The notes under the pieces are model-generated. The model was not told where the DNA came from. It saw nothing but the letters and a program-made list of their open reading frames with translations, and did not search any database. From Smithella sp. UBA2180 (GTDB lineage Bacteria > Desulfobacterota > Syntrophia > Syntrophales > Smithellaceae), in NCBI GenBank assembly GCA_002327415.1, contig DCVU01000079.1, forward strand, positions 1-37,353: a DNA stretch of 37,353 bases, in the 5' to 3' direction. Positions 5,060-31,691 of this stretch are shown piece by piece. The translations under genes and the position numbers were made by a program. Numbering within the stretch: the first letter of the stretch is position 1; each line of letters begins with the position of its first letter.

Positions 5060-5082
5060 TAGGTCTCCTCCACAATTTTAAA

Positions 5083-5114
5083 GACCCCGACCTTCGAGAA
5101 TAAAGGTCGGGGTC
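5083..5114 (-). terminator. Strong hairpin downstream of asd (terminator or attenuator ahead of the ATP-grasp gene)
   Basis: Perfect 11-bp stem GACCCCGACCT / AGGTCGGGGTC with a 10-nt loop. On the minus strand it is followed by TTTAAAATT. It lies between asd (ends 5125) and the next gene (starts 5059). Confidence 0.5.
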
Positions 5115-5124
5115 GTGTGGTAAA

Positions 5125-6225: not shown

Positions 6226-6239
6226 CTAAATTTCCTTTG

Positions 6240-7181
6240 TTATTTATTTTCAATATTCTTAAGCAAAATTGATCTTGCCTTTTCTACATCCGCCGCAATC
6301 TGCTTCTTTAACATTTCGGGACTATCAAATTTGATAATGTCCCTAATCTTCTCCACAAACTCCGTATTTAATCTTTTGCCTCTGAGATCACCGGAAAAAT
6401 CAAGCATATGAACTTCAAAAGTAGAAGTATAATCAGCGAAGGTTGGTTTCTCGCCGATATTTAAAGCCGCCATATAGCGCTTTCCTTCAACATTCGCAAA
6501 TGCGGCATATATTCCCGCGGGCGGCAGTAATTCTTTTTCCGGCTCTATGTTGGCCGTGGGAAAGCCAAGACCAACACCGCGCCCTCTTCCCGAAACCACA
6601 ATACCGGCAATATTATAACACCTTCCCAGAAGCTTGGTCACTTTTTTAACGTCGCCTTTGATAATCAAATTCCTTACAAGCGTGCTGCTGATAATATCCT
6701 CTCCCTCTTTAACAGCGTCAACAACTTCTACAGTAAATCCCATTTCATTCCCGCAGGAAATCAAATAATCGCTGTTGCCTTCTTTGCCCTGACCGAAAGT
6801 ATAATCATGGCCGACAATAATTTTTTTAATAGCCAGTTTTTGTCCGAGGAATTCCCGGACAAATTGTTCGGCAGTCACCTTGGAATAATCCAGGGAGAAA
6901 GGAATCACTAACGTGCCGTCAATCCCGCAATTTTCCAGCAATTTCAGCTTCTCATCTAAAGTAGTGATCAGATAAAAAGGCCGGATCCCAGGATGAAGAA
7001 TCATCTTGGGATGCGGGTCAAAAGTAATAACCAGCGATTTCGTTCCGGCCTTTTTTGCCTCGTTAGCAAGTTTACGGCAAATGAATTGATGGCTCAGATG
7101 CACGCCGTCAAAGTTGCCGATCGTCACAAATGATCCGCGAAAATCTTCAGTTATGTTTTCTATTCCCTTAAATATAATCAT
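6240..7181 (-). CDS. ribF: Bifunctional riboflavin kinase / FAD synthetase
   Basis: 313 aa. GNFDGVHLSHQ (FAD synthetase) and GRGRGVGLGFPTANI...EVHMLDF (riboflavin kinase). Confidence 0.9.
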   Translation of the reverse strand: MIIFKGIENITEDFRGSFVTIGNFDGVHLSHQFICRKLANEAKKAGTKSLVITFDPHPKMILHPGIRPFYLITTLDEKLKLLENCGIDGTLVIPFSLDYSKVTAEQFVREFLGQKLAIKKIIVGHDYTFGQGKEGNSDYLISCGNEMGFTVEVVDAVKEGEDIISSTLVRNLIIKGDVKKVTKLLGRCYNIAGIVVSGRGRGVGLGFPTANIEPEKELLPPAGIYAAFANVEGKRYMAALNIGEKPTFADYTSTFEVHMLDFSGDLRGKRLNTEFVEKIRDIIKFDSPEMLKKQIAADVEKARSILLKNIENK

Positions 7182-7256
7182 TATTTTCCACTAACCATTA
7201 AGATAATTGGCTTGCTAACATAGCATTTTGGGGATTAAATTCAAGTTCATTTTATC

Positions 7257-7284
7257 TTGACAATAAGATGATGATAGGTATAGT
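7257..7284 (+). promoter_or_regulatory. Sigma70-type promoter of tRNA-Leu
   Basis: TTGACA (7257-7262), a 16-nt spacer, then TATAGT (7279-7284), ending 14 nt before the tRNA 5' end. Confidence 0.6.
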
Positions 7285-7297
7285 GCACTTTTTGCGT

Positions 7298-7384
7298 GCC
7301 GAAGTGGCGGAATTGGTAGACGCGCTAGGTTCAGGGTCTAGTGGGTGTACGCCTGTCCGGGTTCAAATCCCGGCTTCGGCACCA
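7298..7384 (+). tRNA. tRNA-Leu (anticodon CAG), class II with long variable arm, encoded CCA
   Basis: Acceptor stem GCCGAAG / CTTCGGC, anticodon loop TTCAGGG (CAG), long variable arm, T-arm GGGTTCAAATCCC, then ACCA followed by a T-run. Confidence 0.9.
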
Positions 7385-7492
7385 TTTTTTTGTCCGCATT
7401 AATTTTAATATGTTATATCCAAATGAAAGCTTTTAACTTGACGCTTCGAAGCAATTTTTTTATCCTGTAAAAAAAACAAAGGCAAAGCACTA

Positions 7493-8209
7493 ATGATCGA
7501 AAACTTGGTAAACAATCTATCTTTATACTTGCAGGGTTCAGTGTTTTTAGCTTTCCTTGCAGCATATCTGGGCGGAGTGGTAATAAGTTTCACTCCATGC
7601 ACTTATCCTTTAATTCCGGTAACTGTCGGATTAATCGGCGCGCAGGGTTCATCATCCAAACTCCGCGGATTTTTTCTTGCACTGTTTTATGTTGGAGGAA
7701 TCTCATTTACCTATTCCATTCTGGGCGGAATAGCGGCCTTATCGGGCAGACTTTTCGGGCAGATGCAAACGACGCCCTGGACATATTTCATTATGGCAAA
7801 CCTTTGCCTTTTTATGGGTCTGTCCATGCTCGATGTTTTCCATATTTCTCTTCCAGTTCCGCAAAAATTCATGAAGATCCCCGTCCAAAACAATAATAAA
7901 GGATTTTTAGACAGCTTTTTAATCGGCGCCGTATCCGGCGTTGTTATCGGACCCTGCACCGCTCCCGCGCTGGCCGTTTTACTGGGCTATGTGGCGGTAA
8001 AAACGAATCTTTTGCTGGGTATGAGTCTGCTTTTTGTTTTCGCCTTCGGCATGGGAACGCTGTTGATTATCGCCGGCACATTCGCCGGCGTTATCGCCGC
8101 TTTGCCCAGATCAGGCACATGGATGATAAAAATAAAATTCATTTCCGGGCTGATATTGATTGGCGCGGCGGAATATTTCCTGTATATTGCTGGTGCTTTA
8201 TCAACATAA
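7493..8209 (+). CDS. ccdA: Cytochrome c biogenesis / thiol-disulfide transporter CcdA (DsbD transmembrane-domain family)
   Basis: 238-aa polytopic membrane protein with the paired motifs SFTPCTYPLIP and GPCTAPAL characteristic of CcdA/DsbD-beta. Confidence 0.85.
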   Translation: MIENLVNNLSLYLQGSVFLAFLAAYLGGVVISFTPCTYPLIPVTVGLIGAQGSSSKLRGFFLALFYVGGISFTYSILGGIAALSGRLFGQMQTTPWTYFIMANLCLFMGLSMLDVFHISLPVPQKFMKIPVQNNNKGFLDSFLIGAVSGVVIGPCTAPALAVLLGYVAVKTNLLLGMSLLFVFAFGMGTLLIIAGTFAGVIAALPRSGTWMIKIKFISGLILIGAAEYFLYIAGALST

Positions 8210-8225
8210 GAAAAAAGAGGGTGCA

Positions 8226-8732
8226 ATGAATAAAAAAATACTATTGTTGATTCCGGTTATTTTATTTCTCTGTGTTTCCGCCGCCTTGTCGTTCGGGCAA
8301 TCCGGACCTCCCTTTAAACAGGAGAAGATTGCGGCGCCGAACTTTTCATTGGATGATGTTCAGGGAAAAACATTTAAACTGAGCAGTCAACGGGGAAATC
8401 CGGTAATAATATTTTTCGGGGCGACTTGGTGCCCTGCCTGCCGCGGCGAAATGCCCAACTACAAAGCTCTGTATGATAAATACGCTAAAAGCGGGCTGAA
8501 ATTTATTTATATTGATATAAACGAATCGACCAAAAAGGTGGCTCGTTTTGCCAAAGAAAATTCATTCCCTTATCTTGTTTTGGTGGACTTAGACGGCAGT
8601 GTCGCCAATGACTACGAGATTATCGGGGTGCCGACATTAATTCTCGTGGATAAGCAGGGAAACATCATCGGCGTAAGCCACCGTACTTCGGATTTGCCGC
8701 TGGATAAGCTTTTCCCGGCTAAAAAGAAATAA
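8226..8732 (+). CDS. TlpA/ResA-family periplasmic thiol-disulfide oxidoreductase
   Basis: Signal peptide MNKKILLLIPVILFLCVSAALS, then a thioredoxin fold with WCPAC. SD AGAGGGTG precedes the ATG at 8226, so the 8160 start was rejected. Adjacent to ccdA. Confidence 0.85.
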   Translation: MNKKILLLIPVILFLCVSAALSFGQSGPPFKQEKIAAPNFSLDDVQGKTFKLSSQRGNPVIIFFGATWCPACRGEMPNYKALYDKYAKSGLKFIYIDINESTKKVARFAKENSFPYLVLVDLDGSVANDYEIIGVPTLILVDKQGNIIGVSHRTSDLPLDKLFPAKKK

Positions 8733-8762
8733 CCCGATAAAATATTTTTTAGAGGTGAAGCA

Positions 8763-8981
8763 ATGACACAGGACAATTGGCTGAGAGCTTTTACAAAATC
8801 GGACAAGGACCGCTGGCTGGGCGGCATCTGCGGCGGTTTGGGCGAAACCACGCCTCTCCCTTCCTGGGCATGGCGTCTGATGTTTGTTTTACTCGTTACT
8901 ATTTACGGCACAGGATTATTCATCTATATTTTACTGTGGATATTCGCACCTAACAAACCAACGACAGAGGATCAAGAATGA
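8763..8981 (+). CDS. PspC-domain membrane protein
   Basis: 72 aa. DRWLGGICGGLGE followed by a TM helix is a PspC-domain signature. Confidence 0.7.
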   Translation: MTQDNWLRAFTKSDKDRWLGGICGGLGETTPLPSWAWRLMFVLLVTIYGTGLFIYILLWIFAPNKPTTEDQE

Positions 8982-9643
8982 GATTAAAAAACGATATTTA
9001 TATTTACGAATGGACCAATCCTTACGAAAATAACTGCAACAGCTACTTTATCGGCGGCAATGTCAACGCCTTGATCGATCCGGGGCTGACCGGTTATGTG
9101 CCCAATTTGCTTAGCCGGATGCTGGACGACGGCATCCAAAAAGAAGATATTCGCTACGTCATCAACACCCATTCTCACCCCGACCATTTTCAGGGCTCGG
9201 AAGTTTTTGATCAGGAAAAAGTCAAGGTCGGCCTGCATGTCAAAGAAATCGAATTTTTACACGGAGACGGCGGCGAGTTGTACAGCCTTTTCGGAATCAA
9301 CGCCCCCCGGATGAACGTAAATTTCCCGCTGGAAGAAGGCAATGTGGTTTTAGGAGACCAGACCTTCAAGATAATTCTTGCTCCCGGCCATTCCCCCGGT
9401 TCTATCGGCCTTTACTGGCCGGAACAAAAAGCTCTTTTTTGCGGAGACGTGGTTTTTGATCAAAGCGTCGGACGCACTGACTTTCCCGGCGGCAATGGCG
9501 CTCTTTTGAAGAAGAGCATTCTTGCTTTTTCCAAACTTGATCTGGAATGGATTTTACCCGGACACATGGGCACCTTGCATGGGGAAGGAAATATTCAGAA
9601 GAATTTTAATTTAATTATTCAGGGAATATTCCCTTATATTTAA
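8978..9643 (+). CDS. MBL-fold metallo-hydrolase
   Basis: 221 aa. Contains the HSHPDH metal motif, PGHSPGS and a later LPGH. Overlaps the upstream gene by 4 nt. Confidence 0.85.
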   Translation: MRLKNDIYIYEWTNPYENNCNSYFIGGNVNALIDPGLTGYVPNLLSRMLDDGIQKEDIRYVINTHSHPDHFQGSEVFDQEKVKVGLHVKEIEFLHGDGGELYSLFGINAPRMNVNFPLEEGNVVLGDQTFKIILAPGHSPGSIGLYWPEQKALFCGDVVFDQSVGRTDFPGGNGALLKKSILAFSKLDLEWILPGHMGTLHGEGNIQKNFNLIIQGIFPYI

Positions 9644-9674
9644 ATGCCACTTTGATTTCAAAAAATAACGAGGC

Positions 9675-9741
9675 GGCAAGGAGGATGCTCCGCAGGCGTA
9701 TTTCTAATACGTTGAGGAAGCTGACGACGAAGCCAACAAAG
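9675..9741. repeat. Repeat family 2, copy X (upstream of ettA)
   Basis: GGCAAGGAGG, then hairpin CGTATT-TCT-AATACG, then TTGAGGAAGCTGACGACGAAGCCAACAAAG. The reverse complement recurs at 11592-11659. Confidence 0.7.
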
Positions 9742-9795
9742 TTAGTCAAAGAAAGCGTAGTGGCATAAAATCTGTTTTGCGGAGAAAACTCTTTT

Positions 9796-11481
9796 ATGGC
9801 CAATGAAGGAAACAAGGTAATTTACTCCATGATCGGGGTAAGTAAGATCTACGAAAAAAAACCGGTGCTCAAAGACATTTATCTGTCTTATTTTTACGGA
9901 GCTAAAATCGGCGTGATCGGTTTGAACGGTTCCGGCAAAAGTTCTCTTTTAAAAATTCTTTCCGGCTTGGATACGGATTTTCTGGGTAAGACTATTCTGT
10001 CGGCAGGCTATACTGTCGGCTATCTGGAGCAGGAACCGCGTCTGGATGAAACCAAAACCGTGCGGCAGATCGTCGAACAGGGTGTGCAGAGCACCATGGA
10101 TTTAATTCACGAATACAATGAAATAAACGAAAAGTTTGCCGAGCCGATGTCGGATGACGAAATGGCCAAGCTTTGCGATAGACAGGGCGTCGTGCAGGAA
10201 AAACTCGACGCACTTGACGCCTGGGACATCGATTCCCGTCTGGAAATGGCCATGGACGCGCTGCGCTGTCCGCCCGGTGATACGCTTGTCAAGGTTCTCT
10301 CCGGCGGCGAACGACGCCGCGTCGCGCTGTGCCGTCTGCTTCTGCAAAAACCGGACATCCTGCTTCTGGATGAACCGACTAACCATCTGGATGCCGAATC
10401 CGTCGCCTGGCTGGAACATCATCTGCAAAAATATGAAGGCACCATCATCGCCGTCACTCACGACCGTTATTTTCTGGATAACGTCGCCGGATGGATTCTG
10501 GAACTGGACCGCGGGCAGGGCATTCCCTGGCAGGGCAACTATTCTTCGTGGCTCGAGCAAAAGCAAAACCGCCTGAAAAATGAAGAAAAAGCGGAGGGCG
10601 ACCGAATCAAAACACTGGAGCGCGAACTGGAATGGATTCGCATGTCGCCCAAAGGCCGGCACGCCAAATCCAAGGCGCGCATCAGCGCTTACGAGGAACT
10701 GCTGGGAAAAAATGCGGAAAAAGAATCTGGCACGCGGGAAATCTTTATCGCGCCGGGACCCCGTCTGGGCGATCTGGTGATTGAAACCAAAGATGTCAAC
10801 AAAGGTTACGGGGAAAAGCTGCTGGTGGAAGGCATGAGCTTCGCCTTGCCGCCCGGCGGCATTGTTGGTGTTATCGGTCCCAACGGCGCGGGCAAGACCA
10901 CACTTTTCCGCATGATTACCAAACAGGAAAAACCGGATTCCGGCTCTATCCGTATCGGCGAAACGGTAAAGCTCGCTTATGTCGATCAGAGCCGCGATTC
11001 GCTCGATCCCGATAAAAATATCTGGGAAATGATTTCCGACGGACAGGATATCATCGCCATCGGCAGCAGGCAGATCAATTCCCGAGCGTATGTTTCGAGG
11101 TATAATTTTTCCGGCACCGATCAACAGAAAAAAGTGGGAACACTCTCCGGCGGAGAACGCAACCGCGTTCATCTGGCGCGCATGCTCAAGGAAGGCGGCA
11201 ATGTTCTGCTGCTTGACGAACCGACCAATGATCTGGATGTCAACACGCTGCGCGCGCTGGAAGACGCGCTAGAAAATTTTGCCGGATGTGTTGTCGTTAT
11301 CAGCCACGACCGCTGGTTTCTGGATAGAATCTGCACACACATTCTGGCATTTGAAGGCGACAGCAAAGTGCTATTTTTTGACGGCAACTATTCGGAATAC
11401 GAGGAAGACCGCAAGAAAAGATTAGGATCTGCCGCCAGCCAGCCCCACCGCATTAAGTACCGGCAATTAACCAGAAAATAG
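9796..11481 (+). CDS. ettA: Energy-dependent translational throttle protein EttA (ABC-F ATPase)
   Basis: 561 aa. Two ABC cassettes (GLNGSGKSS / LSGGERRR / LLLDEPTNHLD and GPNGAGKTT / LSGGERNR / LLLDEPTNDLD). The N-terminus and length match EttA. Confidence 0.9.
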   Translation: MANEGNKVIYSMIGVSKIYEKKPVLKDIYLSYFYGAKIGVIGLNGSGKSSLLKILSGLDTDFLGKTILSAGYTVGYLEQEPRLDETKTVRQIVEQGVQSTMDLIHEYNEINEKFAEPMSDDEMAKLCDRQGVVQEKLDALDAWDIDSRLEMAMDALRCPPGDTLVKVLSGGERRRVALCRLLLQKPDILLLDEPTNHLDAESVAWLEHHLQKYEGTIIAVTHDRYFLDNVAGWILELDRGQGIPWQGNYSSWLEQKQNRLKNEEKAEGDRIKTLERELEWIRMSPKGRHAKSKARISAYEELLGKNAEKESGTREIFIAPGPRLGDLVIETKDVNKGYGEKLLVEGMSFALPPGGIVGVIGPNGAGKTTLFRMITKQEKPDSGSIRIGETVKLAYVDQSRDSLDPDKNIWEMISDGQDIIAIGSRQINSRAYVSRYNFSGTDQQKKVGTLSGGERNRVHLARMLKEGGNVLLLDEPTNDLDVNTLRALEDALENFAGCVVVISHDRWFLDRICTHILAFEGDSKVLFFDGNYSEYEEDRKKRLGSAASQPHRIKYRQLTRK

Positions 11482-21407: not shown

Positions 21408-21551
21408 TTAACCTATTTGGACAACAAGCACAGCCTTGGGGCGTGGAATTGATTTGCCGATGGAAGTCCAGCGCTCCGTGTAGCTATTCTTCGACAACGC
21501 GTTCATCGGATTGCCGTGTCCGAAGAAAATTGTGGGCATTAAACTGATCAC
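21408..21551 (-). pseudogene. Remnant of a YgiD/LigB-type 4,5-DOPA extradiol dioxygenase gene (43-47 codons left)
   Basis: The minus-strand frame reads (VISL)MPTIFFGHGNPMNALSKNSYTERWTSIGKSIPRPKAVLVV-QIG-stop. The first ~40 residues match the conserved YgiD N-terminus (MP.LF.GHGSPMNAL.DN.YT..W..LG...PRP.A..VVSAHW), but the frame ends instead of continuing with SAHW. SD GGAGG lies 7 nt before the GTG at 21551. Confidence 0.6.
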
Positions 21552-21656: not shown

Positions 21657-22712
21657 CTATCTAAAAACATTCTGTGCGTCACACGCTTCGAGAAATGGCT
21701 TTCTTAAAAAATTAGTCTCTGAATAAGGAGATTTTTCGGCCTCGCGGAGTTTACCTTGAAAAATAACATTTGGTGCAAGTCCATAGTTTTGACATTCGTC
21801 TGTTATTTGCGTCAGCCAATACTTCGCATCTTCACTGCAACACTTGGCCTTGTAGCGTTCTTCAATTCCGAATAGTTCATTCCATGTTCGGATTTCGTCT
21901 GACAAATTGGCAGGCCCAAAAGTAATAGATATATCCTGCGGGGTTAATTTTAGAATATCGAGTGTATTGATTTGGATCTTAATTTCTAATTTGTATGAAA
22001 TTGTATTATAAGCGTAAAACGATTTACGTCGGTTTCCATTTTTATCGTGAAGAGGGTCGTTTGCGCCCTTGTTTCCTTTATTGCATTTGTCGCAAATCGG
22101 CGCCAAGTTTTTAAAATTTATTGAGGAAAAAGGATATTTGCTTTTCGGTAAGTAATGATCATACGCATCACGGGTATGAACATACTGACCGTCGATGGGA
22201 AGCAATCCGCAAACAGGGCATTTCCCTTTAGAATTTTTTTTTACAAATTCTTTATAGTGTTCATTAATTGTTCCAATGCGTTGTTGCACCGCTTTTAAAT
22301 TAATGACACTATCAAAAAGGCTTTTAAAGAACTTTTCAAGTTCTATTTTTAGTGTAGCATTTAATTTGTCCAGATCACTGTAAAGAAAAGGGGTGTATCC
22401 TGCTGTTCCCTTGCATAAATCTTCAATTGCATTATTATCTTTATAATTTTTTACTAAAGCATTTTTTTCTGTCTGATTCATCGACTGGAATATTTTGTAA
22501 ACTCGTTCAATTGGGCCGTAGAAATAATCTTCTTTTATTTTGTCATCATTATAAATCTCTAGAGTAATTTTTTTAATTTCATCTGGCAATAAATCAATAT
22601 TGTACTCGACTGAAGGATTTGCATTACACCAAACATCAAGAAATATTTGGTCAACCCATTGCTGGAGCTTATAAATGCTATGATTTGGCAAATATACATA
22701 AGGAAATAGCAT
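21657..22712 (-). CDS. HNH (beta-beta-alpha-Me) zinc-finger nuclease-like protein with large unassigned N- and C-terminal regions
   Basis: 351 aa. Core at residues 165-215 (nt 22068-22220) is CPVCG...AYDHYLPKSKYPFSSINFKNLAPICDKCNKGNKG, i.e. CxxC...DH...N...N...CxxCN. The start codon overlaps the stop of the upstream ATPase (TAATG). Visibly AT-rich. Confidence 0.75.
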   Translation of the reverse strand: MLFPYVYLPNHSIYKLQQWVDQIFLDVWCNANPSVEYNIDLLPDEIKKITLEIYNDDKIKEDYFYGPIERVYKIFQSMNQTEKNALVKNYKDNNAIEDLCKGTAGYTPFLYSDLDKLNATLKIELEKFFKSLFDSVINLKAVQQRIGTINEHYKEFVKKNSKGKCPVCGLLPIDGQYVHTRDAYDHYLPKSKYPFSSINFKNLAPICDKCNKGNKGANDPLHDKNGNRRKSFYAYNTISYKLEIKIQINTLDILKLTPQDISITFGPANLSDEIRTWNELFGIEERYKAKCCSEDAKYWLTQITDECQNYGLAPNVIFQGKLREAEKSPYSETNFLRKPFLEACDAQNVFR

Positions 22713-24505
22713 TAGTTATGCTCCATACTGTCAAGGATCGTTTTTATCAGCAATACTTTCTCCACCGAATCGCCCAGTTGCTGGTTAATTTCGGCTAGGA
22801 GCTGCTCTTTGTCTTCTCCCTGTTCGAAGCGCTGCCGTAAGCCTTCAAGCATTGTCTGAGCGCGAAGACCTATGGTCTCACGCTTGTCGAAGGTGGCCAT
22901 GGTGATCTTGTTGATGGATGCGCCCAGAGTATTGTATTCGGGATGTTTGACCGAAACCGTGCCGTCTTCTTTTTTGAACACAAGCACCTTTTCCGGCTTA
23001 CTGTCGGAAATAAGAAAGGGTGTGTGGGTGGTGACCAGCATCTCGTGGCCTTCACTGCCGTCGAAACAATCGTGCAAGCGGGTAACGAAATTGGCGCGCC
23101 AATCGGGATTGAAATGAGTCTCCGGCTCATCGAGTAAAAAAAGGCTTTGGGTGTTCTTAAAAAGCCGGCAAAGGCCAAGCGTGTGTAGCAGTTGGTGTTC
23201 CCCGTCGGAGAAACTTTTCAGCAGGATGGGTTCGCTTACATCCGTCTTGGTTACCCAGAAGTCTTTAAAACGCATGATACGTTCATCCGAAGCCAGAGTC
23301 GGAACCGTCTCGCTGACATACAGACTGTCAGATTGATAGAGGTCTTTTTTCAGATTATGGCTTACAGAAAACAGATTAAGCGTAAGCAATACCTGAAAGG
23401 CTTGGAACAGCTCAACCGGCGACTTATTAGCATCAAAATCAAAGTTTTCGCTGAAGGCTTGCCGGGTTGCGTCATTGATAAAGTAATCGAGATAGAGTGT
23501 ATCGCTGGCTTCATCAATATACCAGCAGGTAGCGCAGCGTGTCAGCCGATTAATGATTCCATCAATTCTTGGGGAAATATTTTCATCACCTTCCAACAGT
23601 TTGATCAGATTGCATCTGAAGCTTTTGTTGTCGCTATCACTACCTTCGACAACGGAAAGTGCCGGATGATTTTTTGCAATTTCAAGTGCATTCTCAAATT
23701 CCGGACTGTGCCCGGTAACAAAACTGAAGACTTCATCCGGCAAGACCTCAATGCTGCGCCTGATGATAATGCGGAACTCCGTGAGTTCCTGGATTTTTAT
23801 TTCTTCTCGGAACGACTGGAGCGCGTCGGTTTCATGATACAGCAGGTTGCAAAGCAGGATCGCTTGGCTAAAACCGCTGTCGAGGTAGACCAGACGTGAT
23901 TCTGGGCGGCCGGGATAGGACAACTGCTGTTTCAATGCTTCCCAGTATTCGTCAAACTGAATGAAGCGCATTTTGAAAAACGGCAGGCTGAGGATTTCGT
24001 TTTCACCGGAGGAATACCCCAGGATGTATTCCGGCATAAGTTGACGCCCAATGTTTTTTCCGACAACTTCCTCCTCCTCATAGAATCCGTCTTCGTGCTT
24101 GAGCCAATACCACTTTGGCGTTTCGCCGGTTTTTTTGACGATTTTGACGTGTGCACGCCTGTCTGGGCCACTGATCTTGAGGTCATCTTTCGGCTGGATA
24201 AGGTACTCGATTTCAAAACCGTCAGGAATACCTTTATCACCTCGAAACCCTTGTGGATTCGCCTGCTCCTCGTAGCGAAAACTATCCGGCAGGTTTGTGA
24301 GATAGATGCACTCCAGATGATAGAAGATTGCCGCCAATACCTCCAGCAGGTTCGACTTGCCGCTGCCGTTAGGACCGGCGCAGACAAAAGGCGCAAAGCC
24401 CTGTTCCCCCTGCAAATCCCATTCGCTGCGGAAGCGATACTCGAAGCCGGCTTGCAGGCTGCGAAATCCCTTCGGGTCGGTGATTTTAAGGCGAAGCAGT
24501 TTCAT
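22712..24505 (-). CDS. ABC/SMC-type (AAA_15/21-like) ATPase linked to the restriction system
   Basis: 597 aa. Walker A GPNGSGKS (res 44-51, nt 24350-24376), signature-like SDGEHQ (~res 433), Walker B LFLLDEPE (~455-462), H-loop VTTHTP (~res 494). A long helical insert separates the N- and C-terminal half-sites. Starts 6 nt after the hsdS stop. Confidence 0.8.
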   Translation of the reverse strand: MKLLRLKITDPKGFRSLQAGFEYRFRSEWDLQGEQGFAPFVCAGPNGSGKSNLLEVLAAIFYHLECIYLTNLPDSFRYEEQANPQGFRGDKGIPDGFEIEYLIQPKDDLKISGPDRRAHVKIVKKTGETPKWYWLKHEDGFYEEEEVVGKNIGRQLMPEYILGYSSGENEILSLPFFKMRFIQFDEYWEALKQQLSYPGRPESRLVYLDSGFSQAILLCNLLYHETDALQSFREEIKIQELTEFRIIIRRSIEVLPDEVFSFVTGHSPEFENALEIAKNHPALSVVEGSDSDNKSFRCNLIKLLEGDENISPRIDGIINRLTRCATCWYIDEASDTLYLDYFINDATRQAFSENFDFDANKSPVELFQAFQVLLTLNLFSVSHNLKKDLYQSDSLYVSETVPTLASDERIMRFKDFWVTKTDVSEPILLKSFSDGEHQLLHTLGLCRLFKNTQSLFLLDEPETHFNPDWRANFVTRLHDCFDGSEGHEMLVTTHTPFLISDSKPEKVLVFKKEDGTVSVKHPEYNTLGASINKITMATFDKRETIGLRAQTMLEGLRQRFEQGEDKEQLLAEINQQLGDSVEKVLLIKTILDSMEHN

Positions 24506-24511
24506 CCGGCA

Positions 24512-26026
24512 TCATCCCTTTGACGCCGTGATCTGAACACGGTTGTTGGCGTCATCGTAGGTCTGGGTCAGACGGCCTTGTTCCAGAGCCTCAAATACCC
24601 AGGCTTTGAGTTCGTCATATTCCGCCACGCTCCAGTCCGGCGCTTCGTCTTCCGTCAGCTGCCACAACCACTGTCGGCTGGTCTCCATAAAGGTCTGAGC
24701 CTCAAACGGTTTATCGCCTAACTGCTCCAGCCAGGAGGTCAACCACTTGCCTACCAGCGTCTTGCGCCCATCAGCGGATTGAAGCAATATGGCAAGTTCT
24801 TCAGGTTCAGGCAGTTCGAATAATGGCTCTTTAGGTTGTTTTTCCTCTGCTTCGAATTTTACTTTCTCCGCTTTGTCAGGTCCTTCTGCCGGCAGCGGCA
24901 CACGCGACAAATCCAAATCGCCTTTGAAGGCTTTCTGGCTCAATGCGCCATATAGATCTTCCAGATCGGTCAGGCTTTGTTGATAGCGGGACTTGAGGCC
25001 TTCGACTTTTTCGACGATTGCGCTGAATTGATTTTGGTGTATTTCAGGTGGCGTGGGAATAAACAGCTTCTGCATCGCTATTGAATCGAACCTACGAGTT
25101 CCGTGACCAGCCGTTGAAATCAACTTGAGAATTTGGCGTTTTAGGGAAACAAGGCAGTTCTGCAAATATATGACGTTCATCCCCTTGATTGGCTTGATTG
25201 CCTTCATATCTTGGTTAATCGCAATCTCTACAGCGTTAATTGCCACGGGAAATGAATGGGCTAGGATCATACCACGCACAACTATTAATAAATGACCTGG
25301 AGCAATCCGCTTAAGGGATGTTTCCTTAAATACTTTTTCAGAAATATGGTCGGCAGCATTTTTAATCTTTGAAACTTTCATGTCCTTAGGACTGACCCAT
25401 GGGAAATTACCGTCCCAGAAGTCGTCTCTGCTTTTACTTGGTGTGCCACCACTTATAAACTGGCCTACCCTGTGGAATGGTAAAGTGTCCCACCCCTTCT
25501 CGTTCCGCACCGGATCGCCAAACATCTCCAGAAAAACACTTTTGAGCAGGTTGTCTAGTTGTTTTATGTGTTGTTTGCGCCGGGCGATCAGCCCTTCCAC
25601 ATTGTCTAGCAGATAGGCAATGCGCTTTTGGTCGCTGAGCGGTTGAATTGGTATTGAACAACGTTTAACCTCCGGAAAATGGTCTGCATAACCACGGCTC
25701 TTAATTTGAAGCTCAGTAAGGAAGTAAAAAAGATATTTATGATCAATCTGCGCCTTTTCTTTCGCCTCCAGAATTTTGACATTGGGGCCGGGAACAAAAG
25801 GTTGATCGACATATTTGGCTCTACGAGTATGACCACCATATAGAACCATACTTGGTGCGGGTCTGATTACCAAATCATCCCTGTTTGTCCATCCTTCAAT
25901 ATAAGAAGCACCCTGTCCTATGACCGGGTACTTTCCTTCATCATGCCATTCAGACTGTGCAAGGCCTTGGATACCTGACCCATGAGATTTAATGGCATTA
26001 CTAAACAATACGAGTTCAGTAATCAT
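24512..26026 (-). CDS. hsdS: Type I restriction-modification specificity subunit HsdS with an extra C-terminal domain of about 133 aa
   Basis: 504 aa. Two target-recognition regions are separated by the central conserved helix LIARRKQHIKQLDNLLKSVFLEMFGDP and closed by the distal helix LKSRYQQSLTDLEDLYGALSQKAFKGDL. An acidic, Trp-rich tail follows. ATGA overlap with hsdM. Confidence 0.85.
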   Translation of the reverse strand: MITELVLFSNAIKSHGSGIQGLAQSEWHDEGKYPVIGQGASYIEGWTNRDDLVIRPAPSMVLYGGHTRRAKYVDQPFVPGPNVKILEAKEKAQIDHKYLFYFLTELQIKSRGYADHFPEVKRCSIPIQPLSDQKRIAYLLDNVEGLIARRKQHIKQLDNLLKSVFLEMFGDPVRNEKGWDTLPFHRVGQFISGGTPSKSRDDFWDGNFPWVSPKDMKVSKIKNAADHISEKVFKETSLKRIAPGHLLIVVRGMILAHSFPVAINAVEIAINQDMKAIKPIKGMNVIYLQNCLVSLKRQILKLISTAGHGTRRFDSIAMQKLFIPTPPEIHQNQFSAIVEKVEGLKSRYQQSLTDLEDLYGALSQKAFKGDLDLSRVPLPAEGPDKAEKVKFEAEEKQPKEPLFELPEPEELAILLQSADGRKTLVGKWLTSWLEQLGDKPFEAQTFMETSRQWLWQLTEDEAPDWSVAEYDELKAWVFEALEQGRLTQTYDDANNRVQITASKG

Positions 26027-27636
26027 TCAATCATCCCCCTCAATTCCAGAAGCTCGCGCACGATGCCGTGCTGCACCTTGGCAAGGTCTGAGTCTACCGC
26101 ATCGCCAACCTCTTCTTGAATCAGTCGATCCAGAATCACACTCGGTGGGTCGTAAGGCACTTCCTCGAACACGTCTTTCTTATAGCGGGAGAGCGAGAGG
26201 TCATAATTGCTTTCGTCGCTGGCGATATCGGCGCGAGGCACGAAAAAGCACTTCTGTGTGCGGTCGGTTTCGGTTTCGGTATTGCGGGCGTGGTACTTGG
26301 CAACGATATCCTGTAAATCACCATAGCCTTCCTGCTTGGTGCGCTTGTCGTCCAGCGAATAGCCATCGGCCTGCATTTCGTAGAACCAGACATTTTCTGT
26401 TTCACCACCTTTGGTAAAGATCAAAATGGCGGTGCTGACGCCTGCGTAAGGTTTAAATACTCCGCTGGGCATGGTTATGACGGCTTTAAGTTCGCATTTA
26501 TCGACTAATATTTTTCTTGCTTCAACAAAGGCTTTTCCGCTACCAAACAAAACACCCTGCGGCACAATCATACCTGCCGTGCCACCCATTTTGAGCAGAT
26601 TGTAAATTTGTTCTACAAAAAGTAATTCAGTTTTAGTGGTTGCTAATTTGAGCGATTCGTTGATATCGCCCTTGTCAATGCTACCGGTAAACGGTGGGTT
26701 GGCCATAATAATGTTGTATTGGTTCGACTCAGTAAAGCTTTTGCTCAATGTGTCTTTGTAATCAATGTGCGGCGTGTCTACACCGTGCATCATCAAGTTC
26801 ATCAGCCCCAAACGAACCATGGTTACATCAATGTCATAACCATGAAGGCTATCATTGAGAATGTCGCTGACTTTTTTATTCAACCGGCCACTTACTGAAT
26901 CACGAATAAAGCCATCTTCATCAGGTTGTAAGTTCTTTTTCTTGTCTTTATCCAAATTGCTCACCATGTATTGGTAAGCACCAAGCAAAAATCCGCCAGT
27001 ACCGCAGGCAGGGTCAGCAATCCGGTTGCCCAGTTGCGGCGCCACCAGTTCTGTAATGAGCTTGATGATATGCCGCGGCGTTCTGAACTGCCCGTTTTTA
27101 CCGGCTGTGGCGATTTCAGAAAGCAACATTTCATAAACATCTCCTTGAATATCCTGAAATGCATGCCCTCCTTCGTTGGCATCTTTTTCAATCTCCGCGA
27201 ATATCTCTTCGATGGTGGACATTGCTTCTACCAACAAAGCGGGTTTGGGGATAATAAATACCGCATCTTTCATGTAACGCGTGAATGGCGATTCGTTTCC
27301 ATTGAGTATTTTCAAAAAGGGGAATACTTTCGTTTGCACGTGGATAAGCATTTCCTCAGCCGCCATGCGTTTAAAATGGCTCCAGCGCAAGGTTTGTTTG
27401 TTCACTTTCTGGTTGGTTCCTGGAAGCGTAAACTCTCCATCAAACTTGGAGGTATACTTTTCGCTTGTAAATTTGGCATCTGCTTTGTTCTTGAGGTCAA
27501 GATCATCCAATCGCTTCATAAATAGCAGGTAGGTAATCTGTTCAATAGCAGTGAGCGGATTGGAAATGCCGCCGCTCCAGAATTTGTTCCAGAGTTGATC
27601 GATTTTACTTTTAAGTGCTGAGTTGTTTTGTAGCAT
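26023..27636 (-). CDS. hsdM: Type I restriction-modification N6-adenine DNA methyltransferase HsdM
   Basis: 537 aa. Has the HsdM N-terminal domain (LWNKFWSGGISNPLTAIEQITYLLFMKRL), AdoMet motif I IADPACGTGGFLL and catalytic motif IV NPPF. Confidence 0.9.
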   Translation of the reverse strand: MLQNNSALKSKIDQLWNKFWSGGISNPLTAIEQITYLLFMKRLDDLDLKNKADAKFTSEKYTSKFDGEFTLPGTNQKVNKQTLRWSHFKRMAAEEMLIHVQTKVFPFLKILNGNESPFTRYMKDAVFIIPKPALLVEAMSTIEEIFAEIEKDANEGGHAFQDIQGDVYEMLLSEIATAGKNGQFRTPRHIIKLITELVAPQLGNRIADPACGTGGFLLGAYQYMVSNLDKDKKKNLQPDEDGFIRDSVSGRLNKKVSDILNDSLHGYDIDVTMVRLGLMNLMMHGVDTPHIDYKDTLSKSFTESNQYNIIMANPPFTGSIDKGDINESLKLATTKTELLFVEQIYNLLKMGGTAGMIVPQGVLFGSGKAFVEARKILVDKCELKAVITMPSGVFKPYAGVSTAILIFTKGGETENVWFYEMQADGYSLDDKRTKQEGYGDLQDIVAKYHARNTETETDRTQKCFFVPRADIASDESNYDLSLSRYKKDVFEEVPYDPPSVILDRLIQEEVGDAVDSDLAKVQHGIVRELLELRGMIE

Positions 27637-27637
27637 A

Positions 27638-30511
27638 TTATGCTGCCAACCTTTCTGTTAATTCTAAGATTTCATTTATTTCTGTCGTGGTAAACAAACC
27701 ACGGATTCCATCTGGATGTAATATCGTAAAGGGTGATTCAATCAGATCACGCTTTTGCACAGTCTCTTTTTGCAGAATGAATTCTTTAAGTAAATTTAGG
27801 AAATCCAGTTGCCGCGAACTCAGATTCGTATGATTTTGAATAAATTGTTCAAAGGACTTGCTAACTGTATCGGGGAAACTTTCTAATATTTCGAGGCCTA
27901 AAATATGTTTGATAAACTGAATGAATTTTGCCTTTCGGTTTTTATAAACATTTTTAAGCAAATCTTCGGTAATGTGTGGATGTGCATCGTGCAACAGGGT
28001 AGCAAGTTCCTCTGCCTCTGTTTCGGTAATCGCTTCTCCTGCTTTGATTTTTTGCAAAGTTGGATTACTCTCCGTCAACTCCAGAATTAATTTCTCTACC
28101 ATCTCACGATATTGAGAAACACTCACCGCCGAGTGTTCCGGCCCAAATTCCACCATTTCTTTTGTTTTCAGCAAATCGGTAAAATCAAACTGAGCAGGAC
28201 CCAGAGATTGAACATCACCATCGCGATATTTCATTAGGTGAGATAATTTTTCGGCAAGTTCATCAAAGGTGTCGTCAGTTGCCTTTGCCCAGTAATGATT
28301 AGTTTGGGCAAGCTTAATAGTCGCTTCTTCCTTGGCAACTACATTTACTGAAAGCGGTAGCTCACCTATTATTTCGACGATATTATCTTTTAAGGTCTCA
28401 TATTTTGCTTTTTCATTGGCCAACTTCGCCAAAGAGGTTTCCAATAGATCCTTCTGAAAACGCATTGACTTAAAATCAGTTTGTGAAACGGTTCTAAAAA
28501 GCGGTTTTATGGCGGCACTTAAAAATTCAATTTTTTCATGCGTTAATTTTGTCCAGAAATTTTCATCTTTGATCTTTTGTAATTCTACGGCTGATTCCTG
28601 AATGACAACTGAGTTCTGCGGCAGTTCCTGAATCTGCTGGCGCAGCTTAATAATTTCTTTTCCTGCAATAGCCTCGTTGTGCATATCGATTGCCTTTTTA
28701 ATTTTGTCAAGCCTGATTCCAAAAAAGCGCACCGGAAGCGGAATTTGCACAGTAGTTTCTTTGCCTTTGGGATTGAGTTTATAATATTCAAAATTATCCC
28801 AACAATCCAGAATGAGAAATTTGTCTTTCTGGGTGCACCAGGGTTTTATTTTATGCGACTCTAAAAGGCGTGTGCCACGGCCAATCATCTGCCAGAACTT
28901 GGTGTAGGAATAAACGGGTTTGGCAAAGACCAGATTTACAATTTCTCGAATATCAATACCGGTATCGAGCATATCGACGCTAAGAGCAATGCGCGGCAGA
29001 TCATTATTTTTAAATTGCGCCAAGAGCCCGCTCTTTCCATAAACGCGTGAATCTTCCGATACCATGACTTTCGCCAGTTCACCTTTATATTCAGGATAAA
29101 GTTTATCAAAAATGCCTTCTATTCTTCGCGCATGAGATATCGTGGAACAGAAAAATATTGTTTTACCGGGAAGTACACCATTTGTATCTTTTATGGATTC
29201 CTCCATGAACTCTTTGACAATAAGCGCATTGGTGCCTTTATTAGTGACGGTCTTTTCAATCTCGGTGCCTTCAAAATTGATCTCTTCTACTTCTTTACCC
29301 TCAAGGATCAATCGCTTTTGATCTTCCAGAGATATTGTTCGTTTACTGATACCTTCATCCTGAAATTTGGTGTGTATCTTCATCACTTGAAAATGGCACA
29401 AATAGGGAGGAATGTTATTAACCGCTTCCTCATACGTATAGGCAAACGTCGGCAGGCCGTCATCACAATTAAAAAGTTTAAACGTGTTGTGGTCAATCAT
29501 ATCTGTTGGTGTTGCGGTTAGTCCGAGACTAATAGCTTTGAAATAATCAAGCACTTCGCCGTAAGTATTATAAATAGAGCGATGACTTTCATCAATCACG
29601 ATCAAATCGAAGAAATGGGGTGAAAGGGCGTTTTCTTCATCTCTAATAATATTGAGCATGGTTGGATATGTTGAAACGTAGATACGGCGATCTTTGGCAA
29701 TAAGCTTTTCACCCTCCTTAGGCCAGCGTGGTTCATTGGGTAAATGTTCTTTAAAAGCCGCTAGTGCTTGTTCTCGTAAAGCGATTCTATCCACTAGAAA
29801 TAACACTCGTTCTGCATGGCCCGCACGCATGAGTGCATCAACAAGGGCTATACAGACTCGTGTTTTCCCTGTTCCGGTAGCCATTACCAGAAGAAAATTG
29901 CGTTGTTTCTTTTCAATGCCTTCCATAACCGCGCGGATTGCACGAATCTGATAATCTCTTCCGGCAATTTGTGTATTGATGAGTTCGTCAGCCAGTTGTT
30001 TTCTGTGTTCGCGAATATATTGAAAACGCTCTAAATCATCGCGGGTGGGATAGCCGAATACTTTTCGGGGCGGGTAATTTTCTAAATCCCAGAAATAAAT
30101 CTCAAGACCGTTTGTATAAAAACAGAAAGGGAGTTTATCACCATTTTGTTTTTGAATGTTATAACAATACTGCTTCGCCTGTTCTCTGCCTATTGCAGCA
30201 TCCTTGGAAGTCTTTTTAGCTTCAACAACAGCCAGCGGTTTTGCGTCTCTTCCTAATAGAACATAATCGCTGAATTGGTGGCCTTCATAAGGCGTGCGGG
30301 GTTCAGAAATACCTTCCGGCAAGGGAACAGAGATATCAAATTCTTGCGAAACATGGCTCAGACTATTAACATCCCAACCAGCAGCTTTGAGTTTTTGATC
30401 GATTAGTTCTTTTCGGGTTTCTGCTTCGCTCTTCACATTGCCTCGGTATTCCCCTCTTACGCCCAGCACTGATGCTGCGCGCTCTCGGATCGCGGGAATT
30501 TGGTACATCAT
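27638..30511 (-). CDS. hsdR: Type I restriction enzyme R subunit HsdR (nuclease + SF2 translocase + EcoEI-R-type C-terminal domain)
   Basis: 957 aa. N-terminal SEAETRKELIDQKL and PD-(D/E)xK-like DYVLL...VVEAKK. Helicase motif I MATGTGKT, motif II VIDESHR, and later TGIDI. The C-terminal helical region resembles the EcoEI R C-terminal domain. The stop is 1 nt from the hsdM start. Confidence 0.9.
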   Translation of the reverse strand: MMYQIPAIRERAASVLGVRGEYRGNVKSEAETRKELIDQKLKAAGWDVNSLSHVSQEFDISVPLPEGISEPRTPYEGHQFSDYVLLGRDAKPLAVVEAKKTSKDAAIGREQAKQYCYNIQKQNGDKLPFCFYTNGLEIYFWDLENYPPRKVFGYPTRDDLERFQYIREHRKQLADELINTQIAGRDYQIRAIRAVMEGIEKKQRNFLLVMATGTGKTRVCIALVDALMRAGHAERVLFLVDRIALREQALAAFKEHLPNEPRWPKEGEKLIAKDRRIYVSTYPTMLNIIRDEENALSPHFFDLIVIDESHRSIYNTYGEVLDYFKAISLGLTATPTDMIDHNTFKLFNCDDGLPTFAYTYEEAVNNIPPYLCHFQVMKIHTKFQDEGISKRTISLEDQKRLILEGKEVEEINFEGTEIEKTVTNKGTNALIVKEFMEESIKDTNGVLPGKTIFFCSTISHARRIEGIFDKLYPEYKGELAKVMVSEDSRVYGKSGLLAQFKNNDLPRIALSVDMLDTGIDIREIVNLVFAKPVYSYTKFWQMIGRGTRLLESHKIKPWCTQKDKFLILDCWDNFEYYKLNPKGKETTVQIPLPVRFFGIRLDKIKKAIDMHNEAIAGKEIIKLRQQIQELPQNSVVIQESAVELQKIKDENFWTKLTHEKIEFLSAAIKPLFRTVSQTDFKSMRFQKDLLETSLAKLANEKAKYETLKDNIVEIIGELPLSVNVVAKEEATIKLAQTNHYWAKATDDTFDELAEKLSHLMKYRDGDVQSLGPAQFDFTDLLKTKEMVEFGPEHSAVSVSQYREMVEKLILELTESNPTLQKIKAGEAITETEAEELATLLHDAHPHITEDLLKNVYKNRKAKFIQFIKHILGLEILESFPDTVSKSFEQFIQNHTNLSSRQLDFLNLLKEFILQKETVQKRDLIESPFTILHPDGIRGLFTTTEINEILELTERLAA

Positions 30512-30703: not shown

Positions 30704-31393
30704 CTAATTCCTTATAGAATTTAAAAAGGTGTAGATCTTTTCTGAAGCTCCTTTTACGATTTTAATCAGATCTTTCTTCCATTTTTCAGACATGCTCAAA
30801 TATATTTCCCGCATCTTATTTTTTTGGCTTTCTTGATCTAAAAGATATTCGCCGAGTTGCCGGGCAGTTTCAATATCCTTCTCCCGTTTAAATGGTTTCT
30901 TGCGCCTGTTGCTTACTATGAACTTGTGCAAAACATATGCGGCTGGCTCCGGCACGTCGATTGAAACACCTTTGTAAGAAATTTTCATTGTGTGATTTTG
31001 CATAAGATCCAGATATCTCAATCCCTGGGCATTTATGTGGAGCTTATCAATTTTGTATGGTTTGCCTCTACCTCTGCCCCTTTCAGGTGTTAGAAATTCA
31101 ACTTCAAGATCAGGATGGACATACTTCTCGTAACCGTCAAGCAGCGATACTTTTCTGTCAAAGCCCAATTTTTCCAAGAGCAAGGAGACATCAACATCTT
31201 TATGTATGAGTGGAGGATTGGGTACCATGAGATCCAGATCGGCTGTTCGTTGCATGGAAATTTCCACCGGATTGCCAAAGTATTCCTTATAAACGAGAGG
31301 ACACCAGCCTCCTATTAGAATAATGTCCCGGAGAACCTCTTCCTTGTCGAGCTTTATCAATATGGTTAAAAATAAATCATTTTCTTTTTCCAC
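30704..31393 (-). CDS. Nucleotidyltransferase-fold protein (AbiEii/MNT-like; candidate toxin or effector)
   Basis: 229 aa, GTG start. Has the minimal NTase signature IGGWCPLVY...RTADLDLMVP (GG...DxD), then a helical C-terminal domain. Overlaps the upstream small ORF by 17 nt. Confidence 0.6.
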   Translation of the reverse strand: MEKENDLFLTILIKLDKEEVLRDIILIGGWCPLVYKEYFGNPVEISMQRTADLDLMVPNPPLIHKDVDVSLLLEKLGFDRKVSLLDGYEKYVHPDLEVEFLTPERGRGRGKPYKIDKLHINAQGLRYLDLMQNHTMKISYKGVSIDVPEPAAYVLHKFIVSNRRKKPFKREKDIETARQLGEYLLDQESQKNKMREIYLSMSEKWKKDLIKIVKGASEKIYTFLNSIRN

Positions 31394-31691
31394 GGAGAGA
31401 CCTTTTTATTTCCTTGAGATTTTCCTTCACCTGACGCAGTTTTGCCTGATATTCTTTTCTTTGTCGCATACGTTCACTAAGAGCATCCTGCACTTCGGGG
31501 ATATCTTTTCCAACATAGTCAAAAATTACCTTTTTATCTTCACGATGTGCCAGATAGATATATCGCCTTCCGCCTCTCTCCTTCACCGATATCGATCCGC
31601 GAGGAGCTTTTGAGATTTTTTCTTTATAGAAAACAGAAAGTTCTTCCAGTCTTTTGAGTTCTTCTTCTAATATGCCTTTTATGATGCTCAT
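31377..31691 (-). CDS. Small basic coiled-coil protein, candidate antitoxin/autoregulator of the NTase gene
   Basis: 104 aa, charged and helical (EELKRLEE...RMRQRKEYQAKLRQVKENLKEIKRSLRGKRK) with a central GSISVKERGGRRYIYLAHRE segment. Lies directly behind a promoter studded with repeated operator-like motifs. Confidence 0.6.
   Translation of the reverse strand: MSIIKGILEEELKRLEELSVFYKEKISKAPRGSISVKERGGRRYIYLAHREDKKVIFDYVGKDIPEVQDALSERMRQRKEYQAKLRQVKENLKEIKRSLRGKRK

Follow-up and report, generated by a model that had tools for sequence, protein, structure and literature searches.

Septu PtuAB is a DNase that is inhibited by ATP, and its retron-borne relatives cut tRNA-Tyr or single-stranded DNA; in retron-Eco7, the complex of reverse transcriptase and multicopy single-stranded DNA (RT-msDNA) restrains PtuAB until a phage nuclease releases it (PMC12673091). 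PrrC is embedded in the restriction-modification (R-M) system EcoprrI and is activated when that enzyme is inhibited (PMC12707154; 10.1101/2024.01.29.577857), and PrrC and PARIS have both been described as guardians of R-M (PMC12707154). Payne et al. reported that Hma, BREX, DISARM, and type I R-M systems can harbor further defence genes within them, stressing pairs of an ATP-binding cassette (ABC) ATPase and an effector; in their analysis PrrC was embedded almost exclusively in type I R-M, and of Septu systems only 0.7% lay in Hma (10.1101/2024.01.29.577857). Here we describe two genes, encoding an ABC-type ATPase and an HNH nuclease, at the 3′ end of a type I R-M operon of Smithella sp. UBA2180 (assembly GCA_002327415.1). 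They lie on contig DCVU01000079.1, of which we analyzed positions 1-37,353 and refer to that stretch as the window. Comparison of homologous loci gives good support to the view that the two genes form a Septu-like module coupled to type I R-M. We use "pair" for the ATPase and HNH genes and "cassette" for the arrangement hsdR-hsdM-hsdS-ATPase-HNH.

The operon and its terminal pair

The five genes of the cassette lie on the minus strand of the window, and the order that had been proposed in a sequence-only reading agrees with their open reading frames (ORFs) and with matches in Pfam, PADLOC, and NCBIfam. Positions are those of the window.

27638 to 30511, minus strand: hsdR, 957 aa; Pfam ResIII 146 bits, EcoEI_R_C 88 bits; PADLOC REase_I 549 bits
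30215 to 30271, minus strand: PD-(D/E)xK motif of HsdR, SDYVLLG...AVVEAK, kept in at least 90% of 43 cassettes
26023 to 27636, minus strand: hsdM, N6-adenine DNA methyltransferase, 537 aa; Pfam N6_Mtase 196 bits, HsdM_N 63 bits; PADLOC MTase_I 560 bits
24512 to 26026, minus strand: hsdS, whole gene, 504 aa
24905 to 26026, minus strand: hsdS core, aa 1-374, with two target-recognition domains and conserved helical regions; Pfam Methylase_S; PADLOC Specificity_I 306 bits, aa 8-371
24512 to 24904, minus strand: hsdS C-terminal tail, aa ~375-504; acidic linker and a predicted winged-helix-like domain of ~95 aa
22712 to 24505, minus strand: ABC-type ATPase, 597 aa; NCBIfam TIGR04435
24353 to 24376, minus strand: Walker A sequence motif GPNGSGKS, aa 44-51 (K50)
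23192 to 23209, minus strand: variant ABC signature motif SDGEHQ, aa 433-438
23120 to 23143, minus strand: Walker B sequence motif LFLLDEPE, aa 455-462
23018 to 23029, minus strand: H-loop THTP, aa 493-496 (coordinates computed from the gene start)
21657 to 22712, minus strand: HNH nuclease partner, 351 aa
22080 to 22220, minus strand: HNH catalytic and zinc core CPVC...DH...N...CDKCN, aa 165-211, residues invariant in alignment

The host operon encodes a type I R-M system: HsdR combines a ResIII/DEAD helicase core and an EcoEI_R_C C-terminal domain with an intact N-terminal PD-(D/E)xK nuclease motif, HsdM carries the N6_Mtase domain, and HsdS carries two Methylase_S domains. Consecutive genes are tightly joined, by TAA-t-ATG between hsdR and hsdM, an ATGA overlap between hsdM and hsdS, TGA plus 6 nt plus ATG between hsdS and the ATPase gene, and a TAATG overlap between the pair. 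All four junctions read as they had been reported, and the order and overlaps recur in other genomes. These junctions are the basis for reading the five genes as a single transcript; a scan of the window for promoters and terminators returned counts equal to the shuffled expectation and was uninformative on that point.

The ATPase is an end-to-end member of TIGR04435 (820.7 bits against a cutoff of 300; aa 1-595 on model positions 1-568 of 568), a hypothetical equivalog of NCBIfam with the curated name "restriction system-associated AAA family ATPase" and no assigned function. PGAP and IMG already put this name on many homologues. The module had been called undescribed; that holds for the HNH partner, which belongs to no curated family, but not for the ATPase, a named TIGR04435 member. 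The family covers the ATPase alone, with the HNH partner, the HsdS tail, and the behavior of the module falling outside it. Walker A, the SDGEHQ signature, Walker B, and THTP were all found where they had been placed. Identity is 68-95% among the 120 best matches, distant phyla included, and Pfam assigns AAA_21 (56 bits) with weak SMC_N/RecF matches. Against the PADLOC PtuA model PDLC00293 the ATPase reaches 176 bits, split over two stretches of which the better spans aa 413-578, whereas a true member, a Pantoea PtuA, has 651 bits end to end; the NCBIfam retron PtuA model NF041760 reaches 45 bits (cutoff 500). Sequence matches in the PDB to PtuA, retron PtuA, and AriA have E values of 1e-4 to 1e-2 (PtuA 8ee4, E=5e-4) and are confined to the C-terminal region. 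The nearest named relatives are the phage-defense ATPases PtuA, AriA, PDC-M01A, and HEC-01A, and we class the ATPase as a distant PtuA relative.

The HNH core reported for the partner is complete: C165xxC168, D185-H186, N202, and C207xxC210-N211 stand at the expected residues, and every catalytic and cysteine residue is invariant in an alignment of 21 sequences from several phyla, as is the N-terminus MLF-Y. The protein matches nothing in Pfam or NCBIfam. In PADLOC, PDC-M01B (53 bits) and PtuB (37 bits, aa 151-220) match the HNH core of ~65 residues only, and PDC-M62B (49 bits) aligns with aa 70-288 on model positions 41-255 of 328. In a confident AlphaFold2 model (predicted local distance difference test score, pLDDT, 88; predicted template modeling score 0.84), helical domains at the two termini enclose first the HNH unit and then a small beta unit. 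Searching PDB sequences with a profile gave no match, and the best fold match by Foldseek, PtuB of the retron Ec78 complex (9nnb_J), was not significant (E=1.1, TM 0.27/0.38), so that neither profile nor structure extends the likeness to PtuB beyond the core. We read the HNH partner as a very distant PtuB-like family. Its size had been held up as distinctive against a PtuB of ~200-230 aa, a point we drop: a standalone ATPase and HNH pair beside McrBC in Bacillus cereus has an HNH protein (PtuB-like/PDC-M01B) of 354 aa, which aligns with aa 84-313 of the window protein at 26% identity, evidence of distant homology.

A word-indexed search returned 1080 homologues of the HNH protein with a constant length of ~350 aa, and clustering at 50% identity gave 330 clusters at E<=1e-30, 849 at 1e-10, and 3117 at 1e-3. 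Homologues of the ATPase and of the HNH protein each number hundreds to thousands, and these numbers, with the recurring gene order, mark both window proteins as far beyond chance ORFs. One 587-aa protein (P0310) carries the HNH-family region (profile positions 108-353) at residues 339-583 and may be a fusion or a gene-calling artifact.

How close, then, is the pair to described systems? It shares with Septu the two-gene logic and order, an AAA_15-21-type ATPase with intact Walker A, Walker B, and signature directly upstream of the HNH gene, and the HNH core; a Pantoea Septu pair likewise follows a long HsdS (538 aa). It differs in that its ATPase matches PtuA models only in part (176 bits, with 651 for a true member) and its HNH protein matches PtuB in the core only, and in size, the solved Septu chains being smaller (ATPase 465-552 aa against 597; HNH 211 aa against 351). 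Septu is also an autonomous two-gene defense system, with PtuB bound by a PtuA oligomer and its nuclease gated by ATP, whereas the window-type pair was never standalone in the survey described below, which argues against autonomy. A check set beforehand, for full-length matches to characterized PtuA or PtuB, found partial or core-only matches in NCBIfam, PADLOC, the PDB, and Foldseek; with these and a fold match that was not significant, we did not accept the pair as canonical Septu. It is, as had been suggested, an ABC ATPase with a complete HNH nuclease of the Septu superfamily, with intact motifs and a distant likeness to PtuA and PtuB, and to judge from its proteins it forms a deep, separate branch.

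Other systems share parts of this logic. In the type I-A retrons, or Septu type II, a third component encoded alongside the PtuAB effector keeps it inactive until a phage signal arrives (PMC12673091); the partner there is RT-msDNA, and here it would be the type I R-M enzyme, with restraint by R-M being our inference. The pair resembles PrrC of EcoprrI in combining an ABC-type ATPase-controlled nuclease with a near-exclusive type I R-M linkage, of the PrrC/RloC kind, and a proposed backup role. PrrC differs in being a single polypeptide with an anticodon-nuclease domain and an AAA_13 ATPase, placed between hsd genes, whereas the nuclease here is a separate HNH protein; we know of no HsdS extension for PrrC. 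The window proteins had no AAA_13 match in Pfam and no PrrC model among the best 25 of 103 PADLOC matches. PARIS likewise uses an ABC ATPase, AriA, as a scaffold to which a nuclease stays bound until anti-restriction proteins such as Ocr are sensed, but AriB is TOPRIM rather than HNH, hsdS linkage is not obligate, and similarity is distant. Membership in PrrC and PARIS was rejected on these weak or partial matches, as was MADS (MAD3 29.7 bits against 420; MAD2 117 bits against 720). The PADLOC candidates PDC-M01 and PDC-M62, also two-gene ATPase and HNH-like systems, came from "guilt by embedding" in BREX, DISARM, and type I R-M; the window pair is terminal, not between system genes, and may lie outside the definition of that screen. 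Membership was rejected at 53 bits for PDC-M01B, 49 for PDC-M62B, 50 for PDC-M01A, and 44 for PDC-M62A, the A models matching only the C-terminal part. In the literature searched on Septu, HNH, or ABC ATPases with hsd genes, we found nothing on an hsdS-tail-ATPase-HNH arrangement and no mention of TIGR04435 or its name; an earlier description is possible, the likeliest place being the classification of ABC ATPases by Krishnan et al. 2020 (NAR 48:10045).

Linkage to type I R-M and the HsdS tail

We surveyed one genome per species for 185,579 species, in which 316 stretches encode a relative of the HNH protein, and analyzed the best 80 (38-66% identity); upstream-gene counts take in only loci with enough upstream DNA. 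In this HNH-selected survey the ATPase gene was co-directional and upstream of the HNH gene in 72 of 72 loci, and HsdS (64/64), HsdM (59/59), and HsdR (52/53) were encoded upstream. The ATPase/HNH junction is a 1-nt overlap in 62 of 77 loci, and that between HsdS and ATPase a 4-nt overlap in 38 of 63. Co-location with type I R-M elsewhere, a check likewise set beforehand, was thus seen at every informative locus, and the R-M association recorded in the TIGR04435 name is borne out: the ATPase gene directly follows hsdS in the window, in all 64 informative genome loci, and on annotated plasmids. Hosts span at least 10 phyla and include Desulfobacterota, Bacillota, Bacteroidota, Alpha-, Beta-, and Gammaproteobacteria, Verrucomicrobiota, Planctomycetota, Cyanobacteria, and Nitrospirota, among others. 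Across 42 loci with five intact genes, mean pairwise identity was 0.75 for HsdR, 0.73 for HsdM, 0.57 for the ATPase, 0.51 for HNH, and 0.31 for HsdS, and the identity matrices of the ATPase and HNH correlated with those of HsdM and HsdR at r=0.83-0.89.

Selecting loci by HsdM gives the complementary view. From a metagenome scan we took the best 80 loci (HsdM 67-88% identity), among which the ATPase was missing in 14 of 54 and the HNH gene in 11 of 42, in every case with a short HsdS. The 14 loci lacking the ATPase are scattered over the HsdM tree (neighbor-joining, 106 sequences), and we therefore rejected the notion that the pair supplies obligate fourth and fifth subunits of this R-M lineage. 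On this tree the 13 tips without the pair imply no fewer than 10 state changes (mean with shuffled labels, 12.5), and the HsdM of some pair-less loci is up to 95% identical to a pair-bearing HsdM. Repeated changes between near-identical methyltransferases indicate that gain, loss, or replacement of the unit of tail, ATPase, and HNH has occurred many times, on an hsdR-hsdM backbone that stayed conserved.

The extra domain that had been claimed for HsdS is present and tracks the pair almost perfectly. It occurs in 60 of 60 cassette HsdS sequences. In the HsdM-selected loci, where the tail was scored with a hidden Markov model (HMM) trained on pair-bearing loci, tail and downstream ATPase occurred together 35 times, tail alone 0 times, ATPase alone once, and neither 13 times (Fisher p=5e-11, a test that ignores phylogeny and relies on an HMM built from pair-bearing loci). 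The association is robust because it spans many independent transitions on the HsdM tree, and the split in HsdS length, which is independent of the tail HMM, gives the same answer: 479-665 aa with the pair, besides one 206-aa fragment, against 374-453 aa without it. The tail thus moves with the pair at each gain, loss, or replacement, and we propose that it is an adaptor for the ATPase/HNH module.

The tail has no Pfam match, and its close homologues are HsdS fragments. Its conservation is moderate, above that of the target-recognition domains and below that of the core helices. AlphaFold2 predicts that the acidic linker is disordered and that four helices and a beta-hairpin come after it (pLDDT 64). 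Foldseek found no significant match for this model; the list was dominated by winged-helix domains, including the kleisin C-terminal winged helices that sit on SMC heads, and a kleisin-like analogy for the tail is speculation only.

Plasmid and hsdR-less loci extend the picture. The pair is present in both plasmid records whose HsdM is 60-69% identical, its genes annotated "restriction system-associated AAA family ATPase" and "hypothetical protein"; the next-best plasmid matches to HsdM are at most 47% identical, and in the two we inspected the gene order is M-S-R, HsdS has 375-416 aa, and the pair is missing. Three loci, in Clostridiales UBA6114 (L012) and on plasmids of Priestia aryabhattai (L082) and Hymenobacter swuensis (L086), carry hsdM-hsdS-ATPase-HNH with no hsdR within 5-10 kb. 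They are either decayed systems or a methylase-plus-module unit working without HsdR, and they fit docking of the pair on the methylase/specificity part.

A phage origin of the cassette was rejected, given 1 viral contig in 2.9 million. The sole contig of the viral collection with all five genes (L169, IMG/VR UViG_2706794637_000004, 2139-11086; HNH 37% identical) may be a true prophage or a misbinned host fragment.

The post-hsdS slot and the mosaic of cassettes

In pair-less relatives the gene directly after hsdS often overlaps the hsdS stop and encodes another defense module. The modules below all occupy this slot after a short HsdS.

L140, 12867-16477: Gabija, full-length (GajA 1085 bits, GajB 872 bits)
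L127, 9519-11927: PDC-S06, AAA_13, PrrC-related, 1047 bits
L112, 5154-7760, and L089, 4322-5383: LmuB-like SMC-type ATPases
L100, 11561-12517: PDC-S42
L090, 3127-3822: GIY-YIG/RAMA, PDC-S14

This sharing of the slot places the pair among defense modules by position, and among the occupants only the TIGR04435/HNH module is accompanied by an HsdS extension.

More distant relatives keep the arrangement. Divergent TIGR04435 proteins (25-30% identical) on Priestia, Sphingobium, and Hymenobacter plasmids follow a 497-555-aa HsdS and precede an HNH-like protein, and the Sphingobium and Hymenobacter cassettes sit on a different type I backbone (HsdM 28-29% identical). Plasmid pEuc2 of Pantoea eucalypti (L088, 2461-8159) carries hsdS (538 aa)-PtuA-PtuB-hsdM, recognized by PADLOC as Septu end to end (PtuA 651 bits, PtuB 293 bits), so the pattern of a long HsdS followed by an ATPase recurs with a different ATPase clade. 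PDLC00293, which the Pantoea PtuA matches over its full length, is also the best PADLOC PtuA model for the window ATPase; the nearest recognized Septu clade is therefore itself found inside type I operons. Embedding in R-M had been taken to set the pair apart from Septu. The pair is indeed hard-wired to type I loci in other genomes, but, with PtuA and PtuB between hsdS and hsdM in Pantoea, the arrangement is not unique to it.

The cassette is also a mosaic. G+C content at third codon positions is 0.37 in hsdR, 0.52 in hsdM, 0.44 in the hsdS core, 0.57 in the hsdS tail, 0.57 in the ATPase gene, and 0.31 in the HNH gene. A metagenomic cassette (L170, 6364-10873) is 93% identical to the window (21657-26026) over 1907 nt, a stretch that takes in the last ~110 nt of hsdS and runs through the whole ATPase gene. 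The ATPase proteins are 95% identical, and identity outside the ATPase is 42% for HNH, 69% for HsdM, 72% for HsdR, and 39% for HsdS. This indicates that the ATPase gene alone was recently exchanged between diverged cassettes and that one ATPase works with very different HNH partners.

Cargo between the hsd genes is variable in the HNH-selected sample, and the 3′ pair is constant. At least 9 loci hold a ~460-aa Schlafen AlbA_2, HATPase_c_4, and winged helix-turn-helix protein (among them L001 4056-5432, L020 3603-5000, and L014 5977-7344); others hold Bro-N proteins (L065 4051-4908, L055 3569-4462), KilA-N proteins (L009 5883-6692, L050 3900-4745), or a YhcG/DUF1016 PDDEXK nuclease (L059 5450-6586). 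The Sphingobium yanoikuyae plasmid (L085, 4710-6427) has an 8xMP membrane protein and a GIY-YIG nuclease between hsdM and hsdS.

Two further features flank the operon in the window. Upstream of hsdR, two overlapping small genes on the minus strand (30704-31691) encode a nucleotidyltransferase of 229 aa (NTP_transf_8, Pfam 87 bits) and a protein of 104 aa without a family, preceded by a sigma-70-like site (11/12) at 31749-31721. The two look like a toxin-antitoxin-like or minimal defense pair; we rejected them as components of the system, having found no homologues among 80 related cassettes. Between the HNH gene and a thioredoxin-like gene lies a 47-codon ORF (VISLMPTIFFGHGNPMNALSKNSYTERW..., 21411-21551, minus strand); the near-identical JGI contig L172 has a called gene of 47 aa there too. 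The ORF has no match in Pfam but resembles the start of an extradiol dioxygenase of the LigB/YgiD type, and it may be what is left of a gene truncated when the cassette inserted.

How the pair may be coupled to R-M

We lean, with guarded confidence, towards reading the pair as a Septu-like accessory effector that depends on type I R-M and is tethered to it through the HsdS tail. The ATPase would regulate the bound HNH nuclease, the two acting as an effector pair, and tail, ATPase, and HNH travel as a three-part 3′ unit on the hsdR-hsdM backbone. Through its linker and winged-helix-like domain, HsdS would anchor an ATPase dimer, together with HNH, on the M2S or R2M2S complex. The nuclease would be gated by the nucleotide state of the dimer, as in Septu and type I-A retrons, and would fire according to the state of the R-M complex, which may have stalled on unmodified DNA or been disabled by an anti-restriction protein. 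The outcome would be a second line of defense, like PrrC on EcoprrI or PtuAB under retron RT-msDNA. Tethering, trigger, substrate, and defense phenotype are all points that we infer here; the earlier suggestion that the pair might sense the R-M complex, or be held in check by it, is better motivated now, with indirect support from the co-variation of tail and pair. A bolder form of this proposal, which we offer tentatively and think less probable, is a five-component class of type I R-M in which the HsdS adaptor couples the DNA-recognition complex to a Septu-type effector and the state of the enzyme, whether engaged on unmodified DNA or blocked by a DNA mimic, gates a second nuclease. By analogy, the adaptor might possibly dock on the ABC head as kleisin winged helices do on SMC heads.

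Several observations weigh against tethering and dependence, besides the two limits of the Fisher test given above. Gabija and PDC-S06 are translationally coupled to hsdS with no tail at all, so position alone is no sign of physical coupling. The model of the tail is of low confidence and has no significant structural match, and the tails of the divergent Priestia, Sphingobium, and Hymenobacter clades, although long, are not detectably homologous to that of the window. One locus (L098), the sole discordant one, has the ATPase after a 479-aa HsdS with no tail-HMM match; its tail may be divergent. PtuAB relatives also differ in target by system, be it double-stranded DNA, single-stranded DNA, or tRNA-Tyr (PMC12673091). 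Finally, with each survey covering its best 80 loci, more distant relatives without R-M might exist.

The alternative that survives best is that the tail recruits ATPase and HNH to methylase/specificity sites, where HNH would serve as an extra or alternative restriction nuclease on unmodified foreign DNA and not as a guard or abortive effector. The module does follow HsdS, the DNA-recognition subunit, the predicted tail resembles the winged helix, a common DNA-binding fold, and Septu PtuAB degrades DNA, whereas some PtuAB relatives target tRNA instead. The three hsdR-less loci could be a working methylase-plus-nuclease unit, but they may also be decayed, and few such loci exist (1/53 in the close clade). 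The pair is absent from about a quarter of close relatives, and with the HsdR nuclease motif kept in at least 90% of cassettes no nuclease function is missing, which also led us to reject HNH as a substitute for a degenerate HsdR nuclease. We consider this form of co-restriction doubtful.

Less probable still, and in our view unlikely, is an autonomous Septu-like pair that uses the 3′ end of the operon for co-expression and co-transfer only. It would account for the post-hsdS slot as a general landing site, where Gabija too is coupled to the hsdS stop, for the frequent embedding of defense genes in type I R-M, and for the recent movement of the ATPase gene alone between diverged cassettes. An autonomous passenger is harder to reconcile with the company of hsdS at all 64 HNH-selected loci, with the figure of only 0.7% for Septu embedded in Hma (10.1101/2024.01.29.577857), with a tail that comes and goes with the pair over at least 10 transitions, and with divergent clades that keep the HsdS-ATPase-HNH order on other type I backbones. 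A housekeeping role in R-M, such as processing or repair of type I breaks in host DNA or control of restriction alleviation, is very improbable: DNA repair is a known task of SMC/Rad50/RecF-type ABC ATPases, and the window ATPase has weak SMC_N/RecF matches and is unusually conserved across phyla (68-78% identity), but its nearest named relatives are all phage-defense ATPases, sister loci carry defense modules in the same slot, and patchy gain and loss is typical of defense genes.

Returning to the R-M-dependent effector that we favor, the association of the ATPase with R-M was already known from its family name. What is new here is a universal HNH partner family, an HsdS tail that co-varies with the pair, the facultative and swappable nature of the tail-ATPase-HNH unit, and the use of the same post-hsdS slot by Gabija, PrrC-like, and LmuB-like modules. 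The cassette is widespread, yet in automated annotation the HNH partner appears as "hypothetical" or as a generic HNH endonuclease and the ATPase just as "restriction system-associated", and as PADLOC models match both proteins partially, defense censuses may miss the module or log it as partial Septu. Near-identical hsdR-hsdM backbones with and without tail, ATPase, and HNH provide natural controls, and the tail is a concrete candidate for a physical link, which makes the question of coupling directly testable. To our knowledge, no case of an effector wired to a restriction enzyme has been well studied other than PrrC-EcoprrI; if the five-component class proves true, it would be a general, structurally tractable counterpart of that paradigm.

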